A stretch of DNA of 64,000 nt from Acidobacteriota bacterium (GTDB lineage: Bacteria; Acidobacteriota; UBA6911; RPQK01; CBDAPI01), in NCBI GenBank assembly GCA_965197285.1, contig OZ240092.1, forward strand, positions 3,947,337 through 4,011,336. Reading direction: 5' to 3'. A model generated the notes under the pieces. The model had not been told where the DNA came from. It ran no database searches and saw nothing but the letters and a program-made list of their open reading frames with translations. Made by a program: the position numbers and the translations under genes. Below are positions 3,385-45,162 of this stretch, one piece after another. How positions within the stretch are numbered: position 1 is the stretch's first letter; each line of letters opens with the position of its first letter.

Positions 3385-5883
3385 TCACCCTTCAATCAAC
3401 TGTCTGACGGCCGCCTCCAGACGGGCTGCCAGCTGATCCGGAGTTTCTCCTTCTTCAAGTTGCAGAGGCTCTCCAAAGGCAACTCGAACCGGCCCCCGCC
3501 GCGGCCAGGAATCGTGAAGCGACAGGCTCTCGAACGTGCCCTGGATGCCGACCGGGACGACGGGGACATCCAGTTCTCGCGCCAGCAGGCCTACGCCGCT
3601 CTTGAAGGACTGCACTCGGCCGTCCGGGCTACGTTTCCCTTCCGGGTAGATCAGAATGCAAAGCCCTCCTTCCGCCAGTTCTCCGGCGTAGCGGAGGGTG
3701 TCCCCGAACCCACCCAGCCGCTGAGGCAAGGGAAACGCACCAAACAGGAGGCACGCCAGGGCGAACTTGCCGGCTGCCGAGAGTCTATCCCCAAGCGATG
3801 AGGTGGCGCTCCAGCAGGCCTCGAAGTATTCCTTCCTGACCGCCGGAGCGATCCGTAATCTCCAGCCCGCCGGCACCGCCGCGAGGACCGCAGCCGTGTC
3901 CAGGTGGCTGCAGTGATTGGCGGCAAACATGAGCGGGGGATCCAGGCTCCCGAGAGCACCCAGTCCGCGAATCTCGAGATCCATCAGGAGGCGAAAGAAC
4001 GGGCTCGCGACCAGATTCAGGAAGGCCCATCGCAACCCGCGGCCGGGAAGGCTCCGAGAGAGGCGGGGTACCCGGTTGTGACTCTCCTTCGCCCCCGAGC
4101 CCGGGCCGCCCGCCCCGGCTTTCCGGATCAAATCCTGAAGATCCTCCACGGTGCGAGCTTCCGAGATGGCCGTTTCCGTGATGCTGACACCAAAGCGGTC
4201 CTCCATCCGGCCCAGCAGCTCCACACGATCCAGTGAGGACAAACCGAGGTCTTCGTCCAGGCGACCGCCCTCGACAGCTCCATGGCCTGGAAGCAGTTGC
4301 TCCAGAGGGTCCTCGATCCGGCGGGGCCCGGAAGAAGCTCCGCGAATCTCTTCGGCCACGCGGTGACGTCTGATCTTCCCGGTGGACGAGGTTCGCGGAA
4401 AGTCGTCCTCCGACCACACCGACCAGCTTCGGATTCTTTGATGTTCCAGCAATTGCAGATTGGCGCAGGCAACGTGTTCACGCGCAGGCACCGATCCATC
4501 CTCAAGGATCAGCGCGGCGTGCACGATTTCCTCCCCGGGGCTGGGCCGTTGTGCCACCACGGCACTGTCGCGCACTCCCTCGAGCCGATTCAAAACGCCT
4601 TCGATGTCTTCCGGGTAGACATTCAGACCGGAGGAGGTCACGATGACGTCCTTTTTTCGACCCAGAAAGTAGAGACGTCCCTGCTCGTCCAGGCGGCCGA
4701 TGTCGCCGGTGTGGAGCCACCCCTCCCGGAGCAGTTTTTCCGTTCGGCCCCCGGGCCCGAGCCGCTCCGAGGCCACGCTGGGCCCACGCACCAGGATCTC
4801 TCCGTCGGGGGCCAGCTCGACTTCCTGGCCCGGGACCGCTTCACCCAGTGCTCCAGGCCGGGAACGGAAGGGATGATTCACGGCTACGACAGGGCTGCTC
4901 TCCGTGAGCCCGTAGCCTTGAACGACCACGAATCCCAGTTCTTTCCAGAACTCTTCGAGCTCCTTTTCAACCGCCGCCCCACCGACGACAAACGCCCAGA
5001 ACTTGAAACCGACTCTGCGGTGAAACGATCGGTGCCGCCACCACCGGGCCGCCACCGCGGCCCAGCCTCTGGTGCCCGCTGCAATCGGTGGCCGGGTGGC
5101 TCCGGCGATCTCGTCGTGCAGCCCCCTCAGCATCCTGGGAACCAGGCAGACGACCGACACCCGGTGGTCGCGAATCGTGCTCAACACCACCCTGGGGCTG
5201 TGGCGGCGGCTCAAGACGACCGATCCTCCCAGCAGAACAGGAATGAAGAGCCCGATGGCCTGGCCGAACATATGGCTGAGAGGCAGGAGGTTGAGGATTC
5301 TCACAGGCTGAAACGGCCATGCCATCCATCGGTAGCGCCGGATCTCGAGGCGAAAGGGTTCCAGGTTCGAGCAGATGTTGCGGTGGCGATGGATCACACC
5401 GGACGGTCGGCCGGTGGTCCCGGAGGTGAAAAGGATCTGAACGGGCTGCTCCGGATCGAGGCTCTGAGGCGACGGCGGCTCAGGGTAGCGGTCGCGGCTG
5501 ACTCGCGTGAGGCGCTCTCTATTCGGCCAGGGAGCCGCATCAGTTTCTTCGCCGTGCAAAAGCAGGTCGGCCCCAACCTGCTCGAGAACGCGCCCGATCA
5601 TCTCGACCGTGCTGCGACTGTCCAGGGGCACGACCTGGACTCCGCTGAGCACACACGCCCAGAAGGCAAAGACCCATTCAGGACGGTTTTCCGACCATAG
5701 AATCACGCGGCTCCCGGCGCCCAGATCCCGGGAGACAAGATATCCCTGGAAGACTCGGATTCGGTCCAGCAGCTCTCGATAGGAAAAATGAAAAGTCCGA
5801 AATCCGTTGTCGTAGCGCAGCGCCTCCCTGTTCCCCAGGCGCTCCATTTCCGGAACCAGGTCAGCCAGTGTGGACAGAGCCAT
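3385..5883 (-). CDS. tri-domain fusion: AMP-dependent acyl-CoA/acyl-ACP synthetase + acyl-carrier (PP-binding) domain + PlsC-type lysophospholipid acyltransferase
   Basis: FTSGTTGRPSGV AMP-binding motif; DLGLSSLDRVELLGRMEDRFG carrier motif with Ser; NHCSHLD (HX4D) and IYPEGKRSPDG LPLAT motifs. Confidence 0.85.
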   Translation of the reverse strand: MALSTLADLVPEMERLGNREALRYDNGFRTFHFSYRELLDRIRVFQGYLVSRDLGAGSRVILWSENRPEWVFAFWACVLSGVQVVPLDSRSTVEMIGRVLEQVGADLLLHGEETDAAPWPNRERLTRVSRDRYPEPPSPQSLDPEQPVQILFTSGTTGRPSGVIHRHRNICSNLEPFRLEIRRYRWMAWPFQPVRILNLLPLSHMFGQAIGLFIPVLLGGSVVLSRRHSPRVVLSTIRDHRVSVVCLVPRMLRGLHDEIAGATRPPIAAGTRGWAAVAARWWRHRSFHRRVGFKFWAFVVGGAAVEKELEEFWKELGFVVVQGYGLTESSPVVAVNHPFRSRPGALGEAVPGQEVELAPDGEILVRGPSVASERLGPGGRTEKLLREGWLHTGDIGRLDEQGRLYFLGRKKDVIVTSSGLNVYPEDIEGVLNRLEGVRDSAVVAQRPSPGEEIVHAALILEDGSVPAREHVACANLQLLEHQRIRSWSVWSEDDFPRTSSTGKIRRHRVAEEIRGASSGPRRIEDPLEQLLPGHGAVEGGRLDEDLGLSSLDRVELLGRMEDRFGVSITETAISEARTVEDLQDLIRKAGAGGPGSGAKESHNRVPRLSRSLPGRGLRWAFLNLVASPFFRLLMDLEIRGLGALGSLDPPLMFAANHCSHLDTAAVLAAVPAGWRLRIAPAVRKEYFEACWSATSSLGDRLSAAGKFALACLLFGAFPLPQRLGGFGDTLRYAGELAEGGLCILIYPEGKRSPDGRVQSFKSGVGLLARELDVPVVPVGIQGTFESLSLHDSWPRRGPVRVAFGEPLQLEEGETPDQLAARLEAAVRQLIEG

Positions 5884-5913: not shown

Positions 5914-6396
5914 CTACCAGTCTTTCTCCCCGATGGGCATGCCGTCCTCCAGATACCAGGTGTCCTCGGCGTATTTCCTGGCCACAAACAGAAAGAGTTG
6001 ACGCTTGGCGTCGGCCTCGGCCAGTGGGACCTGGACGCTCAACCTGAGTTTCGCACCGGTGGCGGGAGCGCTGGCACCGTCCAGCACGTACCCCTTCACG
6101 TTGAGCTGTTCAACTCCCCACCATCCCTGGGTATTGTGCCCCTGCTCGAAAGTCGCGACCGGAACATCGAGCAGCGATTCATTCTCGATCAACTCGAGTT
6201 TCGCGCCGGTCAGCTCGCCGTCGGCACATCCGATTCCCAGACGGTAGGCTTCCCCGGCCGAGAAAGAGCCGAAAGTGACGATCATGTAAACGGTGTCATC
6301 TTTGGTTCGGATCACCGGACTATCCATAGAGGCCCGCTGTCCAAACGAGGAGCCGCAGAGGGCTATGAAAATGAGCCATGCCGCCGATCTCGTCAT
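5914..6396 (-). CDS. small secreted protein, unknown function
   Basis: signal-peptide-like N-terminus (WLIFIALCGSSFG); no recognisable motif. Confidence 0.45.
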   Translation of the reverse strand: MTRSAAWLIFIALCGSSFGQRASMDSPVIRTKDDTVYMIVTFGSFSAGEAYRLGIGCADGELTGAKLELIENESLLDVPVATFEQGHNTQGWWGVEQLNVKGYVLDGASAPATGAKLRLSVQVPLAEADAKRQLFLFVARKYAEDTWYLEDGMPIGEKDW

Positions 6397-6638: not shown

Positions 6639-7355
6639 CTAGCCCAGCTCTCGAAATACTCTCTCAGGATGGTTGGAGATGATCCCATCGACGCCCAGGT
6701 CGATCATTCTCCGGATCTGGCGAGGTGCGTCGACGGTCCAGACAAAGACTTCAATGCCGTCGCGATGGGCATCCCGAATCACGACATCGCTGGCCAGCTT
6801 CCGCGACAAGGCCAGGTAGCCAGCCCCCGCACGGTTGGCTCCTCCAACGTAGTCAGGTGGGGCCGTTTTGTACAGCGCCGCATACCGCAGTCCCGGTGCC
6901 AGGCCATGCAGATGCCGGACTGCCTCGAGATCGAAGCTTTGAAGGATGCAGCGCGATCCCATTTCAGCCTGAAGAATCTCCTCAACCACGCGTCGGCAAC
7001 CCTGCATCAGCAGATCACTTTCCTTTAACTCGATCAACAGATCCACCGGGCTGGGGCGCACCTGCTCCAGAACCTGGCCCAGCGAGGGAACCCGCTCGCG
7101 CTCGAAGGCGGAATCAAACCAGGAGCCCGCCGCCCACTGTCTGATCTCGCGAAAGCTCAGTTGGCTGACCCTTCCCTTGCCACTGGTGGTTCGATCGAGC
7201 GTGGGATCATGGATGACCGCCGGCTGCAGGTCGCGAGTAAACTGGATGTCGAGCTCAATCAGATCGCACCCGCGTTCAATGGCCAGCTGAAAAGCTGCTA
7301 AAGTATTCTCCGGAGCGGCCCCCGAACAACCACGGTGGGCGATGACCTTGACCAC
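6639..7355 (-). CDS. glycerophosphodiester phosphodiesterase (GDPD family)
   Basis: VIAHRGCSGAAPENTLAAF...ELDIQFTRD GDPD signature. Confidence 0.8.
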   Translation of the reverse strand: MVKVIAHRGCSGAAPENTLAAFQLAIERGCDLIELDIQFTRDLQPAVIHDPTLDRTTSGKGRVSQLSFREIRQWAAGSWFDSAFERERVPSLGQVLEQVRPSPVDLLIELKESDLLMQGCRRVVEEILQAEMGSRCILQSFDLEAVRHLHGLAPGLRYAALYKTAPPDYVGGANRAGAGYLALSRKLASDVVIRDAHRDGIEVFVWTVDAPRQIRRMIDLGVDGIISNHPERVFRELG

Positions 7356-9332: not shown

Positions 9333-9947
9333 TCACGACGGATCGGGCACAGCCATCGCCGCCACTTCCCGGTATCGAGGGCAGTCGGTTGTGTGATCGT
9401 TGACCATCCCCACGGCCTGCATCATCGCATAGCAAATGGTGGATCCGGCAAACTTGAAGCCGCGGCGGCGCAATTCCCCGCTCAGTCGATCCGACTCCGG
9501 ACTCGTGACCGGCAGCTCGCGGAGGTGTTTCCAGGAATTCTGGATCGGCCTGTTGTCGACAAAACTCCATAGAAACTTCGCGAATTCGCCGAATTCTTCC
9601 TGAACCTGAAGGAAGGCTCGTGCATTCGTAATTGCCGACCTGATCTTCAACTGGTTGCGGATGATGCCGGGATTGGCGAGCAGCCGCTGCACGTCCTCTT
9701 GGGTGTAGGCGGCAACCCGGGCGGGGTCGAAGTGATCGAATGCCTTCCTGTAATTCTCCCTCTTTCGCAGGACTGTCAACCAGCTCAACCCGGCCTGGGC
9801 CCCATCCAGCGTAAGGGCCTCGAAGAGCAGCCGGTCATCGCGCACCGGCACTCCCCACTCCGTATCGTGATATTCCTCATACAACGGATCGGAACTCACC
9901 CAGGCGCAGCGGACGACCCGCTGGGGACTTCCGGTTGGCTCAATCAT
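9333..9947 (-). CDS. tag: DNA-3-methyladenine glycosylase I
   Basis: EYHDTEWGVP and Cys/His zinc site typical of Tag. Confidence 0.9.
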   Translation of the reverse strand: MIEPTGSPQRVVRCAWVSSDPLYEEYHDTEWGVPVRDDRLLFEALTLDGAQAGLSWLTVLRKRENYRKAFDHFDPARVAAYTQEDVQRLLANPGIIRNQLKIRSAITNARAFLQVQEEFGEFAKFLWSFVDNRPIQNSWKHLRELPVTSPESDRLSGELRRRGFKFAGSTICYAMMQAVGMVNDHTTDCPRYREVAAMAVPDPS

Positions 9948-9960
9948 GCTGATGTCGTCC

Positions 9961-9995
9961 GAATTAAGAATTAAGAATTAAAAATTAAAAATTGA
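9961..9995. repeat. AT-rich MITE-like repeat, site A (single copy, approx coords)
   Basis: GAATTAAGAATTAAGAATTAAAAATTAAAAATTGA in a 62% GC background; same motif at 18459, 18723, 26549, 26726. Confidence 0.6.
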
Positions 9996-39757: not shown

Positions 39758-42700
39758 TTGTCGCGGGTTGATGGGAGGCTTGATGATGGACTTTGCTGGA
39801 ACCGAAGGGACTCAGGGACTCGGCGAATGCAGCACTTCTGTGTTGGCCGGCCGGGTTGGGCGACGGTGCGGCCCGGCGCGGCCCATCCGGCTGGCGACTC
39901 GGGTGGCCGAAGCCGGCGCGGGCCGGTTGCGCCGCTTGTTGCCCTTGCCGGGGCGGCAGCGGCGGCCCCCGCCCTCGCCCAGACCCCCTCGCACTGCAAC
40001 CCGTCGGACCGCAACGAACTCTGGTGCGCGACCCTGACGGTGGAGCTAGACCACCGGTTCGCGGATACTTGGGCGGATATTATCGGGTTTGTCGCCCCCG
40101 ATTCCGGCACGAGTTCTCCTCCTTACGGGAGCGTCGCGCCCGGGCGCACCTTCACTTGGCGCGGGAACTCGTTCAGAGTGGACGTTCTCCGTGTCCGGGG
40201 GATGGGGCAGTTGATATTCAGGTTCGGCCCGGACCGTCTCGGGTCCGGCGTTTTCGCGCTGGAGGTCGGGACGGGAGCGAGCAAGCGAAGCTTCCCAATT
40301 CTCCTTAACGGTTCAAGGTTCCAACAATGGTCCGACACGGGCCTGGCCGGGGCCTGGTCGGCGGGCGACAGCGTCCCGGTCAAGCTCGTCCGCATCGCCA
40401 CCGTGCCGGGCAGGCCGGCCTCCCTGCACGCGGTCCCGAACGGGCAGACGCAGATCGACCTCACCTGGGGCGCCCCCGAGGATGGCGGCGCGGATATCAC
40501 GGGCTACAGGATCGAGGTGTCCACCGACGGAGGCCTCACGTTCAGGGAGCTCGTGGCCACCACGTCCAGCCGGAGCACGACCTACAGCCACACCGGTCTC
40601 ACGCCCGGCAGGACCTATCACTACAAGGTCAAGGCGATCAACTCCGTCGGCACGGGCCCCAGATCGTTGATTCCCAGCGCCACCGCCGGCGCCCCCCCGC
40701 ACAACGTCAACGCGACTGCGCAGTGCGACGCGACCGACAGCAACGAACTGTGGTGCGCCACCCCCTGACGGTGGGCAAACATTCTGCCTTCTTTGGGCTT
40801 GGCAACGTTGCCGGCAGAGTACTTGGCAGTGCCCAACCCGCGTCCTTCACCCTGGACTCGCAGGAAATCCATGTCAGGAAACTGATGTACATTGCCGGAT
40901 CGCGGGCCCTCGATTTCGAAATCTCTCACGGTCTGGGCTCCGGCCACTTCTCGCTGGAGATCGGCACGGGTCGGATCAAGAAGTCCTTCCCCATCGTGAA
41001 CCGGGGAACCCGAACGGTGTTCCGCTTTTCCTTGCAAGGCCTCAACTGGCAGCTCGTCGATACGGCCCCCGTCACGCTCAAGCGCGCCGGCCGCCCGGGC
41101 AGGCCGACCTCGCTGCGCGCGACCGCGAACGGGCCGAGCCAGGTCGACCTCACGTGGAACGCCCCGGAGGATGACGGCGCCGGCCGGATTACGGGCTACA
41201 AGATCGAGTGGGAGGAGCAGGAAGTTTATTTTGCGAAAACCCTCGTGGAAGACACGGGCAACGCGAAGACGACCTATGGCCACACCAGCCAAGGCCCCAT
41301 CCCTCTCAAAGGGGGCGAACTTTACTTTTACCGGGTCTCGGCGATCAACTCCGCCGGAACGGGTCCCGCAACCGAATGGGTGGAGATTGTCGCCAACACC
41401 GCGAGCCCGGCGCTCGGGCACTGCAACCCGTCCGACCCGGACGAGTTCTGGTGCGCCACCATGACGGTCGACACGTGGAGTAGTACGAACGCCAATTGGT
41501 TCGGTTTCCAGACTTATGGGTCAGACCACGGCGACCTATCCCCCAGGATGTTTGCCTGGCAGGGGACCAGCTACACGGTCAGTCAGTTGATCTTCGAACA
41601 AGCCAAACAGGACCTAGATTTCATAGAGATACGGTTCCGTATAAATCCCCTAGGGGCGGCGACGTTTTATGAACAGGACTACGTGCTGCATGTCGGAAAC
41701 CAGCGGTTCCCGTTTCAAGCTGCCAGTGGCTTTCCGGGGGCAGGTCAACGCTATCACGAATGGCTGGATACGGACGTCGACTTCCTGGGGATGTTTTCGA
41801 CGGGCGACCAGGTCATCGTGAAGCTGACGCGCACCAATCACCCGCCAACGTCACGTGACAACCGGGTCTACATCGAGGAGAACACGGGCCATAACTTCTC
41901 GCGTCCGGAGTTTCCATTCTCCGATGAAGACCAGGGCGACCGGCTGGAACGCGTCAGGATCGTGACCGTGCCCGCGGCGAGGAAAGGCACCCTGACCCTC
42001 GACGGCTCTGCGGTGAGCGCCGGCGACACGGTGACGCCCAGTCAACTGGAGGCTGGCCTTCTCAGGTACTCGCCGCCCCCATGGCGGTTTGGCCGGAACC
42101 TCGCGAGATTTGCCTTCAGAGTGAGCGACGGCAAGGACGAGAGCGCGGCAGACTACACGCAGGCGATCAGTGTGACCCGCTCCTCCGGTGGCTACCACGT
42201 CGGGGGTGGCGGCAAGCTTTCGCAGAAATTCACCACGGGCCCCAATCCGGCCGGCTACCGGCTGGAGGACGTCACGGTCGGGATCATACAGGGGCCGCCC
42301 GCCGTGCCGGCGTTCTCGATCTACAGGCCGGTCTCCCGCCTCCAGTCGAAACCGGGGACCGAAAAGGTCCTCGACTTGACCGGCAGCGTGGCCACCACGG
42401 GGGACCAGACCTTCACGCCCGCACCGGGCACGCCCGACAGCGCGCGGATCCTCGAACCCGATACCAGCTATCACGTGGTGTTCGAGGCGGCCTCGAACTC
42501 CCCCGCAAGTGTGCGGCTGCAGCAGAGCACGGCCCCCCCGACCTGAGCAGAGTCCCGGAGGGATGGTCCTTGCAGAACTGGCATTACTATTACGACCGCA
42601 CCCCCCCGAATACCAGCGTCCCGTGGGCCTGGGGCATCAGCACCAGCGGCATCGTCCTGATCGGGATCACCGCCACTCCGGGGGGGGGCGCCGCAGATCG

Positions 42701-43939
42701 CGGTCGATCCGCCGATCGTCGAGGGCGCGCCCCGCCTCAGCGGCGCAGCCGACGGCGGAACCTGGCGGGAGGGCGAGACCGTCGAGGTGGCGCTCACCTT
42801 CAGCGAGGCGGTGGACGTGGACACGACGGACGGCAGGCCGTCGGTCGGCCTCGCGCTCGGGGGACACGCCGCCGCTCCCCGCCGACTATCTGCGGGGCAG
42901 CGGCACGACGGAGTTGGTCTTCGGCTACACGCTGGTCGATGGCGACGGCGACCACAACTCCGTGCTGGTGATGGCGAACAGCCTGACGCTCGATGGCGGG
43001 ACCATCCGCAGCCAGGAGAAGCAGGCGGACGCGCTGCTGGACCACAACGGCGCGGGGACACAGGGCGGCGGCGGCCCTCTCAACGCCGCGCCGACGGCAA
43101 GCTTCCAGGACGTACCGGAGCACCATGACGGGGAGACGGCCTTCACCGTGGGGCTGCGCTTCAGCGGTGAGCCCGCGGGGCTCGATGCCAAGCGGGACGC
43201 GGCCTCGGTGCTCGAGGTGACGGGCGGGACCGTGACGGGTGTGCGGCGGACGGAGACGGGCGCGAGCCCGGTCTGGGAGGTGACGGTCGCGCCCTCGGGC
43301 ATCGGCGACGTGACGGTGCGGCTGCCGGCGCGGGCCTGCGGCGAGGCGCACGCGGCGTGCATCGGCGGGCGGGCGCTGGCCGAGGCCCTGGAGGCGGCGG
43401 TGCCGGGCCTGGCGATGACGGCAGGCTTCACGCAGGCGCCGGATGCGCATGACGGCTCGGGCGCCTTCGAGCTGCACCTTGCGTTCAGCCACGAGCCGAA
43501 GGGCTTCAGCTACCGCACGGTGAGGGATGCGCTGTTCGATATTGAGGGCGGGCGCATCGAGCGCGTGTGGCGCAACCCGCGCGGGCAGAACCGCCAGTGG
43601 GGCATCGAGGTGGTCCCGGCGGGGGATGGCGCGGTCACGCTCACCGCGCGGGCCACAACCAGCTGCGCGGCGCAGCATGCCGCCTGCGACGACGCGGGGA
43701 GGAAGTTCGCGGGAGACCTGGTGCTCACGATCGAAGGTCTCGACGCCGGCGGGGAGCAGACCGAAGATCCGCCCGACCCGATCACCGCGCGCTGGTCACA
43801 GGCGCCCGCCGAGCACGACGGGACCAATGCGTTTAAGATCCGCTTCCATCTGAGCGCGTCACCGGGAAGCCTGAGCTACGTGACGGTCCGGGATTCGCTC
43901 TTCGCCGTGACGGGGGGCAGCATTGACCTTGCCCCCTAA
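39758..43939 (+). pseudogene. giant secreted repeat protein (adhesin-like). It has an N-terminal signal/TAT-like peptide, three ~130-aa Cys-motif modules interleaved with two fibronectin type III domains (third module alone), an Ig-like repeat and three ~105-aa C-terminal tandem repeats. It is interrupted by at least four frameshifts at G/C homopolymers (plus an in-frame TGA at 42544 after a C7 run) and truncated at 43923 by IS3
   Basis: ORFs 39758-40768, 40327-42546, 42787-43128 and 42509-43939 join into one protein if single-base indels are assumed at C5 (about 40753), C7 (about 42535), G9 (42680-42688) and G5 (about 42855); FN3 signature (TWxAPxDDGGxxITGYxI...YxYxVxAxNxxGxG); local GC about 70%. 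Confidence 0.6.
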
Positions 43940-43990: not shown

Positions 43991-44269
43991 ATGGCACGGA
44001 AGCGGTTTACGGCAGAACAAATCATCATGAAGCTGCGTGAGGCAGAGGCAGGTCTAGCCCAAGGACAGACGGTGGGCCAGATGTGCAAACAGATTGGGGT
44101 GACCGAGCAGACCTACTACCGGTGGCGCAAGGAGTACGGAGGGCTTCGACTGAATCAGGCCAAGCGGTTGAAGGTGTTGGAGAAGGAGAATGCCCGGTTG
44201 AAGAAGCTAGTGGCAGATCTGTCTTTGGACAAGCAGATCCTAAAGGAAGTTTCCTCGGGAAACTTCTAG
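43991..44269 (+). CDS. IS3-family transposase OrfA (HTH plus leucine zipper)
   Basis: MARKRFTAEQIIMKLREAE...[21 protein letters not shown]; RBS GGAAGGAGG upstream. Confidence 0.8.
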   Translation: MARKRFTAEQIIMKLREAEAGLAQGQTVGQMCKQIGVTEQTYYRWRKEYGGLRLNQAKRLKVLEKENARLKKLVADLSLDKQILKEVSSGNF

Positions 44270-45162
44270 GCCCGGCGAAGAGGAGACGCGCAGTGGTGTG
44301 GGTGAGGGAGAGATTGGGAGCAGAGCGCGTCTCCGAACGTCGGGCCTGCCAAGTGCTGGGACAGGCTCGATCGACCCAGCGAAGGGAAAGGCATATCCCC
44401 GATGATGAGGCTCGATTGGTGGCTGAGGTGGTGGAGTTGGCCACGCACTACGGGCGATACGGCTACCGACGGATCACGGCCATGCTTCGTTGGGAAGGGT
44501 GGAAAGTGAATCACAAGCGGGTGGAGAGGTTGTGGAGACAGGAGGGGCTGAAAGTCCCGTCCAGACAGCCGAAACGAAGGAGACTGTGGCTTCATGATGG
44601 ATCCTGCGTTCGGTTACGAGCGGCTCACAAGGATCACGTCTGGAGCTATGACTTCGTGCATGAGCGAACCCATGACGGAAGGGCCTTTCGATTATTAACC
44701 CTACTGGATGAATACACCCGGGAGTGTCTGGCCATTGAGGTTCAACGACAGATGAATCACCAGGACGTGTTGGATCGATTGGCGGAGTTGTTCGTGGATC
44801 GGGGAGTGCCTGAATACATTCGGTCCGATAACGGGTCGGAGTTTACGGCTCAGGCGGTTCGGGACTGGCTGAAGGCTGTTGGGGTGAGGACCTTACACAT
44901 CGAGCCCGGCAGCCCCTGGGAGAATGGATATGTGGAGAGCTTCAACGGAAAACTGCGGGATGAACTGCTGAACGTAGAAGTCTTCGACACGTTGTGGGAA
45001 GCGAAGGTGTTGGCCGAGAGATGGCGCAGGGAGTACAACCAGCGACGGCCTCACAGCGCCTTGGCCTATCGGCCGCCGGCGCCGGAGGCCAGATTACCCA
45101 GGTCCCAGGCCCAGAGTTCTATACCATGGAGTGGACTTCAAATGGTCCCAGGTCTAACTTAG
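44083..45162 (+). CDS. IS3-family transposase OrfB (integrase/DDE core), presumably expressed as OrfAB by -1 frameshifting around 44240-44270
   Basis: DDE core with [12 protein letters not shown] and [16 protein letters not shown] motifs. Confidence 0.8.
   Translation: MQTDWGDRADLLPVAQGVRRASTESGQAVEGVGEGECPVEEASGRSVFGQADPKGSFLGKLLGPAKRRRAVVWVRERLGAERVSERRACQVLGQARSTQRRERHIPDDEARLVAEVVELATHYGRYGYRRITAMLRWEGWKVNHKRVERLWRQEGLKVPSRQPKRRRLWLHDGSCVRLRAAHKDHVWSYDFVHERTHDGRAFRLLTLLDEYTRECLAIEVQRQMNHQDVLDRLAELFVDRGVPEYIRSDNGSEFTAQAVRDWLKAVGVRTLHIEPGSPWENGYVESFNGKLRDELLNVEVFDTLWEAKVLAERWRREYNQRRPHSALAYRPPAPEARLPRSQAQSSIPWSGLQMVPGLT

Follow-up and report, generated by a model that had tools for sequence, protein, structure and literature searches.

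A single-chain adenylation, carrier and acyltransferase fusion of Acidobacteriota and its proposed part in fatty acid salvage

The DNA analysed here, called the window throughout, is a stretch of 64,000 nucleotides from a genome assigned to Acidobacteriota (contig OZ240092.1, positions 3,947,337 to 4,011,336). Close to its start lies a gene whose product joins, on a single chain, an adenylate-forming domain of the ANL superfamily, an acyl carrier protein (ACP) domain and a lysophospholipid acyltransferase (LPLAT) domain (Table 1). This domain order had been read from the open reading frame (ORF) in an earlier note on the same DNA, which also proposed a Pfam domain search. The search recovered all three domains, in that order and above their cut-offs: AMP-binding (residues 14-372; E 4.6e-62, 210 bits), PP-binding (PF00550, residues 545-584; E 2.6e-7, 31.2 bits for a cut-off of 20.8) and PF01553 Acyltransferase (residues 650-780; E 4.2e-10, 40 bits for a cut-off of 23). 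Conservation was followed in an alignment of 40 full-length homologs, which are 46-85% identical to the window protein, and in a distant set of eight relatives (26-35% identity) from TA06, a Nitrosomonas metagenome-assembled genome (MAG), Dependentiae, Uhrbacteria, an actinobacterial contig and Pyrinomonadaceae. The distant set keeps the carrier serine, the HX4D and PEG motifs of the acyltransferase, and the P-loop, GYGLTE motif and A10 lysine of the adenylation domain. The full-length AlphaFold model has a predicted local distance difference test score (pLDDT) of 81 and a predicted template-modelling score of 0.82. Since its fold search was swamped by matches of the adenylation domain, the C-terminal half (residues 520-832, AlphaFold, pLDDT 86.5) was modelled separately and searched with Foldseek for the acyltransferase fold.

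Table 1. Features of the fusion gene and of the genes upstream of it, in window coordinates.
Feature	Position	Strand	Description
Fusion gene, adenylation / carrier / acyltransferase	3385..5883, including stop codon	-	ATG-start ORF, 832 aa, three Pfam domains
ANL adenylate-forming domain, FACS/LACS-like	4339..5883	-	residues 1-515; catalytic Lys503
ANL motifs			TSGTTGRPSG 153-162; GYGLTE 323-328; GWLHTGD 388-394; GRKKD 408-412
Embedded acyl carrier domain	4099..4326	-	residues 520-595; Pfam PP-binding and FAS-type ACP alignment
Carrier motif DLGLSSLD	4234-4236 (Ser550)	-	residues 545-552; predicted phosphopantetheine attachment at Ser550
Long helix LPGRGLRWAFLNLVASPFFRLL	3985..4050	-	residues 612-633; leads into the acyltransferase fold
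LPLAT/PlsC-type acyltransferase domain	3388..3984	-	residues 634-832; Pfam PF01553
Acyltransferase motif I NHCSHLD	3898-3915 (HX4D)	-	residues 656-662; HX4D = HCSHLD 657-662
Acyltransferase motifs III and IV		-	PEGKRS 747-752; VPVVPV 773-778
160-aa protein	5914..6396	-	signal-peptide-like N-terminus; 30 nt upstream of the fusion gene
GDPD-family glycerophosphodiester phosphodiesterase	6639..7355	-	PF03009, E 1e-49

The adenylation domain had been described as a complete fatty-acyl-AMP ligase (FAAL). Its adenylation motifs are intact: T153-S-G-T-T157, Y324-G-L-T-E328, T392-G-D394, R409, K411 and the A10 lysine K503 are invariant in 40 of 40 homologs. The FAAL label, on the contrary, is not supported. 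The best family matches are long-chain acyl-CoA ligases; the best PDB matches are MenE and then fatty-acyl-CoA synthetases (FACS), and no entry labelled FAAL stands among the best 60. The insertion of FAALs is placed between the A5 and A7 motifs. This spacing is 69 residues in the window protein, as against 70-85 in Aas-type proteins. Moreover, residues 298-511 (214 aa) align in a single stretch to MenE 259-478 (220 aa), and with lengths so nearly equal, the roughly 20 aa of a FAAL-specific insertion cannot be accommodated, although the argument is indirect, as it takes MenE as the reference. This insertion, in the N-terminal domain, is the class-defining feature of FAALs (PMC8460268). The FACS signature GWLHTGDIG...GRKKD is present. 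By sequence comparison, the ligase domain is thus of the type of FACS or long-chain acyl-CoA synthetases (LACS), and is without the FAAL-specific insertion. Hence, it is the architecture of the protein, and no FAAL trait, that leads us to infer the loading of its own carrier. Superposed on thioester-forming or carrier-bound structures, i.e., the MenE ternary complex, PltF-PigG and AasS-ACP, the full-length model gives a root-mean-square deviation (rmsd) of 4-5 A, compared with about 11 A for adenylation-state structures. The adenylation domain is therefore modelled in the thioester-forming, carrier-facing conformation, which speaks, if weakly, for the activation and transfer proposed below. 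Alignments of the domain with MenE-type ligases are broken in two by a conserved, family-specific segment at residues 255-296 (nt 4996-5121), in which W281, W282, H288, G292, K294, F295 and W296 are invariant. The model gives this segment two helices following a low-confidence loop, and it resembles the stretch that precedes the GGA motif in LACS-type synthetases.

The nearness of the adenylation domain to CoA ligases, together with its want of FAAL features, would suit a protein with a vestigial carrier, in which the ligase makes diffusible acyl-CoA, the LPLAT domain uses this acyl-CoA or cellular acyl-ACP, and the fusion merely co-localises two enzymes. The PP-binding match is also partial, covering model positions 26-65 only, and in some homologs the domain is absent from the precomputed annotation. 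We nevertheless consider a vestigial carrier very unlikely in view of what the carrier itself presents. Ser550, the serine of the phosphopantetheine site LGLSSLD recognised in the earlier note, is invariant in 40 of 40 homologs and is kept in all eight distant relatives, in other phyla too, with its context conserved (Ser549 in at least 90% of the homologs). The domain always lies between both catalytic domains. In the C-terminal half, the carrier part matches ACPs of the fatty acid synthase (FAS) type by sequence, and its model superposes on FAS ACPs with a template-modelling (TM) score (target) of 0.6-0.76 and an rmsd of 1.1-3.4 A; helix 550-564 (helix 2) begins at Ser550 in the models. The domain is thus predicted to fold as an ACP. 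Finally, in a Dependentiae MAG (L048; L numbers designate the loci fetched for comparison) and in an Uhrbacteria MAG (L051), a gene for an AcpS-type phosphopantetheinyl transferase (PPTase) is found directly upstream of the fusion gene and on the same strand. In the former, it extends over 9631-9978 and overlaps the fusion gene by 8 nt; in the latter, it lies at about 9591-9914, and the two PPTases are 40% identical. The occurrence of such a gene at this position in two unrelated lineages supports a working carrier, and indirectly backs the predicted phosphopantetheinylation of Ser550.

The C-terminal domain has the features of an LPLAT. The earlier note had identified it from its HX4D motif as a lysophospholipid acyltransferase; none of the 40 homologs departs from N656, H657, S659, D662 or P747-E748-G749, and the histidine, the aspartate and the PEG motif are kept in the eight distant relatives too. 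The fold search carried out as a check places it with LPLATs. Indeed, Thermotoga PlsC (5KYM) is both a sequence match of the C-terminal half (E 3.2e-10) and the best solved fold match (E 7.5e-12, rmsd 2.9 A, TM (target) 0.70), followed by the glycerol-3-phosphate acyltransferase (GPAT) GPAT1, a plastid GPAT, PatA and LpxM. On the other hand, the models of the PlsC equivalog and subfamily are missed (TIGR00530, 30.7 bits for 102.95; PRK15018, 12.6 for 501), and the best NCBIfam matches of the C-terminal half are Aas equivalogs, far under their cut-offs. By these scores, the domain belongs to the LPLAT superfamily and not to the PlsC equivalog. Compared with PlsC, it also has some 35 additional residues between motifs I and II, an insert specific to the family. 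PlsC of Thermotoga maritima, with which it shares the HX4D and EG(T/K)R motifs, is a stand-alone protein of 247 aa that uses soluble acyl-ACP, whereas the domain described here is tethered to its own carrier. The long helix that leads into the acyltransferase fold, residues 612-633 in the full-length model, corresponds to helix 93-114 in the model of the C-terminal half (pLDDT of the block, 93-96). The N-terminal helices of PlsC suggest for it, by analogy, a possible location at the membrane interface.

Taken together, these features lead us to propose, with a probability of roughly 60%, that the protein is a single-chain enzyme salvaging fatty acids into membrane lipid, similar to Aas and equipped with its own ACP. 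The motifs suggest that the FACS/LACS-like domain would first adenylate a free long-chain fatty acid. The acyl group would then be passed to the phosphopantetheine thiol on Ser550, once an AcpS-type PPTase has made the holo ACP; ElbD is the one relative whose corresponding domains have been demonstrated to have both activities in vitro (summarised in PMC9131029). Given the PlsC fold and the invariant His657 and Asp662, the loaded carrier would finally dock on the LPLAT domain at the membrane surface, and this domain would esterify the acyl chain to a hydroxyl group left free on a glycerolipid, the likeliest acceptors being a lysophospholipid and lysophosphatidic acid. By this way, a carrier fused to the enzyme would prevent acyl chains that are scavenged or recycled from entering the soluble acyl-ACP and acyl-CoA pools, and would make a separate ACP unnecessary. 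The direct channelling from ligase to carrier to acyltransferase in a self-contained enzyme, put forward in the earlier note, is retained as the most economical reading.

The chemistry proposed here is that of Aas, in which free fatty acid and soluble ACP give an acyl-ACP that stays bound to the enzyme, the acyl group then being passed on to a lysolipid (PMC13170283). Both proteins associate an ANL domain with a PF01553 LPLAT domain; the adenylation domain is 30% identical to the Aas synthetase (E 4e-31) and the acyltransferase domain also matches (E 2e-5). The contrast drawn in the earlier note is nonetheless accurate: in E. coli Aas the acyltransferase (15-137) precedes the AMP-binding domain (233-568) and no PP-binding domain is found, whereas the window protein starts with the ANL domain and, instead of binding soluble ACP, has its own carrier. 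In addition, it scores far below the Aas equivalog models (116.8 bits versus 1349 for PRK06814 and 114.9 versus 1221 for PRK08633), and no gene of the major facilitator superfamily (MFS) adjoins the window gene, unlike Aas, which is paired or fused with the MFS transporter LplT. The same logic is found in AlmEFG of Vibrio cholerae, in which an adenylating enzyme, a carrier protein and a transferase of the LPLAT superfamily act on a membrane lipid. AlmEFG differs in being three separate proteins, in activating glycine and in having lipid A as acceptor. Two MFS genes next to fusion genes, in an Acidimicrobiaceae MAG (L055) and in a contig labelled Candidatus Saccharibacteria (L059, bin '52_9'), were considered as an analogy to the aas-lplT pair and rejected: they are not LplT-like, the latter giving generic MFS matches only. 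The L059 contig has 62% GC, and its MFS gene, downstream of the fusion gene, has an equivalently placed counterpart in L055 (12579-13781) with 73% identity. It is probably a mis-binned Acidimicrobiia contig and, for this reason, is not counted among the candidate phyla radiation (CPR). In a Gastranaerophilales MAG (L072, 3039-6515 and 7208-8023), a protein of 1158 aa shows the LplT-like MFS, acyltransferase and AMP-binding layout of a fused Aas; as in Aas, it is without a carrier domain, and a short way downstream, on the other strand, there is a homolog of cdsA.

Several observations weigh against an Aas-like salvage function. Helix 1 of the carrier is short and modelled with low confidence, and the pLDDT of the carrier is 50-86, so that the helical-bundle ACP fold is assigned with moderate confidence. 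An LplT-like transporter is not found nearby, and the E. coli LplT query matched no fetched locus. No conserved lipid-gene context surrounds the fusion gene in Acidobacteria. The acyltransferase activity of ElbD could not be demonstrated in vitro (PMC9131029). Lastly, the motif III arginine R751 is conserved in Acidobacteria and TA06 only; acceptors may therefore differ between clades.

The identity of the acceptor also bears on a distinct proposal, in which the lipid acylated is not a glycerophospholipid, the enzyme carrying out instead the O-acylation of an aminolipid intermediate, as OlsA does, or of another specialised lipid or metabolite. OlsA, PatA and lipid A acyltransferases indeed belong to the LPLAT superfamily and are among the weaker fold or family matches, and the scores far under the cut-off of every PlsC and Aas equivalog model, as well as the family-specific insert, agree with it. 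We judge this proposal unlikely, because PlsC is the best match by sequence and by fold, with GPATs next, while the scores of the models for OlsA remain lower, at 23 and 14 bits, and because the informative gene contexts are related to glycerophospholipids. In the TA06 locus (L043), cdsA lies directly upstream of the fusion gene; the gene that precedes cdsA gives a CDP-alcohol phosphatidyltransferase match, and only below threshold. In Pyrinomonadaceae, a lipid kinase gene is found upstream. The fusion moreover occurs in small genomes unlikely to make specialised lipids. The contexts outside Acidobacteria and the Pyrinomonadaceae kinase together support a carrier in need of phosphopantetheinylation and a role in the metabolism of glycerophospholipids.

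A further alternative comes from ElbD of Myxococcus xanthus, whose FAR-ACS-ACP-AGPAT architecture, compared here as it is described (PMC9131029), has the same ACS-ACP-AGPAT core order as the window protein. The latter could then be a reductase-less core of an ElbD-type ether-lipid pathway, which acylates dihydroxyacetone phosphate or glycerol-3-phosphate, or passes acyl-ACP to a separate reductase, and so feeds, in Acidobacteria, the synthesis of alkyl ethers related to branched glycerol dialkyl glycerol tetraethers (brGDGT). ElbD-like proteins beyond myxobacteria, in other phyla, reportedly lack the FAR domain for the most part (PMC9131029). Split elbD genes, with the reductase apart from the adenylation, carrier and acyltransferase part, are reported from Poribacteria and from Acidobacteria of soils (bioRxiv 10.64898/2026.06.23.733905). 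In 12 Vicinamibacteria loci (L013, L015-L017, L021, L022, L029, L033, L036, L039, L046 and L056), a divergent gene upstream of the fusion gene codes for an NAD-dependent epimerase/dehydratase, a member of the Pfam family to which ElbA and ElbE belong. This last association, however, sits within a block of helicase, TPR and glucokinase genes and looks like plain synteny. The N-terminal FAR domain of ElbD has no counterpart among the three Pfam domains of the window protein, nor is a FAR encoded upstream, where the window has the 160-aa protein and the GDPD genes. ElbD belongs to the elbA-E operon, with the HAD phosphohydrolase ElbB, ElbC and the epimerase/dehydratase ElbE; on the contrary, up to a distance of 10 kb, no elb operon gene is found in the relative of 97% identity (L001), nor, in the lineage of the window, any gene for a FAR, AGPS, HAD or epimerase protein, and an epimerase neighbour is found in Vicinamibacteria only. 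Among the 150 closest cluster representatives of the carrier-acyltransferase half, no protein reaches the size of ElbD (expected to be well over 1,000 aa). Solibacter usitatus is reported without ElbD (PMC10087280), yet Solibacteraceae MAGs carry the fusion, and the fusion also occurs in Dependentiae and Uhrbacteria, with no elb genes seen in the parts of the loci examined. An ether-lipid function of this kind is therefore, in our opinion, improbable in comparison with the salvage of fatty acids into ester-linked membrane lipid.

A second, paralogous family with the same adenylation, carrier and acyltransferase layout exists in Pyrinomonadaceae (subdivision 4), with proteins of about 925 aa that are 26-27% identical to the window protein (L060, 4388-8244; L061, 8750-12646; L062, 8709-11492). 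A YegS/DAGK-type lipid kinase gene lies directly upstream on the same strand in L060 and L061, and no reductase gene adjoins the fusion gene in the three loci. These genes were considered as true ElbD-type genes and set aside, being reductase-less fusions with a lipid kinase upstream.

The immediate neighbourhood of the gene in Acidobacteriota adds little to the functional argument. The earlier note had taken the GDPD gene, which is indeed present in the window, as reinforcing a role in phospholipid turnover. The local gene order of the window is found again in L001, while in the 78%-identical relatives L002 and L003 an OCD gene and a DDE transposase separate the GDPD gene from the fusion gene. 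Searched by tblastn, the window GDPD matched in L001-L003 only and gave no match within 10 kb in about 50 more distant full-length loci. The adjacency is thus limited to the close lineage of the window; GDPD is rejected as a functional partner, and since it is missing from the distant loci, the argument for phospholipid turnover drawn from it fails. More generally, no conserved operon was found in Acidobacteria, the neighbours being unrelated in four lineages at 45-50% identity, and de novo clustering of neighbours revealed class-level synteny in Vicinamibacteria only (epimerase, DEAD helicase, TPR/MerR protein and glucokinase). Apart from this block, the only recurring neighbour of the fusion gene in Acidobacteria is the 160-aa protein, which has no Pfam or NCBIfam match and occupies the same position in L001-L003, in L004/L005 (31% identity) and in L028 (36% identity). 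A promoter-like site at 6457-6429, in itself weak evidence, lies ahead of its gene, which is probably co-transcribed with the fusion gene. One may think of a partner that is secreted or resides in the periplasm, or else of a coincidental synteny.

The survey of the domain order suggested in the earlier note shows how widespread the fusion is, across Acidobacteriota and in TA06, Dependentiae, Uhrbacteria and Actinomycetota. A full-length search gave more than 7,500 matches. The best 120 of them, about 800-890 aa long, nearly all have the same three domains in the precomputed annotation, the rest falling short of the PP-binding call only, and they are named only 'AMP-binding protein' or 'long-chain acyl-CoA synthetase'. 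In named genomes, full-length matches are found in Bryobacterales, Solibacteraceae, Vicinamibacterales, Terriglobia, Acidobacteriaceae and TA06, and further in Nitrosomonas, Dependentiae, Uhrbacteria, Actinomycetes and Pseudomonadota. Searched on its own, the carrier-acyltransferase half falls into 242 clusters at 50% identity (E <= 1e-30), and it is C-terminal in the complete members. The rarity that the earlier note implied for this domain order is consequently not borne out; thousands of database proteins have it, and it has been noted before (PMC9131029, PMC8460268, PMC12820801). Genome surveys of FAAL-like proteins, in particular, described fusions of an adenylating domain with a lysophospholipid acyltransferase domain that are independent of polyketide synthases and nonribosomal peptide synthetases and have no function assigned (PMC8460268, PMC12820801). 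These surveys selected domains of FAAL type, from which the adenylation domain of the window protein differs as said above. Since the features that define Aas, ElbD and FAALs are absent and those of the ANL, ACP and LPLAT superfamilies are present, the window protein is a further member of a fusion family already noticed and not a new kind of system. In our literature search, no paper reported a biochemical characterisation of the reductase-less architecture.

In the organism of the window, this gene most likely has a plain housekeeping function in the salvage or remodelling of lipids. Its interest lies rather in the family, which is large and which, under its generic annotation, is without a characterised member. 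It may also affect the way ether-lipid producers are counted. A BLAST screen for ElbD homologues (E < 1e-30, at least 30% identity) gave matches in organisms without ether lipids (PMC11868695), and such screens for producers of ether lipids or brGDGT may collect reductase-less proteins, which are unable alone to make ethers. Together with the case of Solibacter usitatus and the Solibacteraceae MAGs, these matches suggest that reductase-less members may inflate the apparent ether-lipid potential. The PPTase-fusion pair of Dependentiae and Uhrbacteria is, for its part, a concrete candidate for the acylation of scavenged lipids in reduced-genome symbionts. One may go further and suppose, as a tentative idea in which we place rather limited confidence, that the fusion constitutes a widespread second salvage route, independent of soluble ACP, which in lineages with reduced genomes, such as Dependentiae and Uhrbacteria (CPR), with its own PPTase, would be the main route from host fatty acids to diacyl lipids. 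No ACP-producing or ACP-requiring lipid enzymes were found in CPR bacteria (PMC7242380), and this second solution, if it exists, would fill that gap. In the same case, the reductase-less 'ElbD homologues' of environmental surveys would be ester-forming salvage enzymes, and not a sign of ether-lipid potential.

Elsewhere in the window, two ORFs with fn3 domains (39758-40768 and 40327-42546, both on the + strand) lie in overlapping frames and perhaps form one large frameshifted surface protein. They are followed, within a stretch of 70% GC (42-44 kb), by an ORF of 476 aa without a Pfam match (42509-43939, +), and after it by an IS3-type transposase with rve/HTH_21 domains (44083-45162, +).

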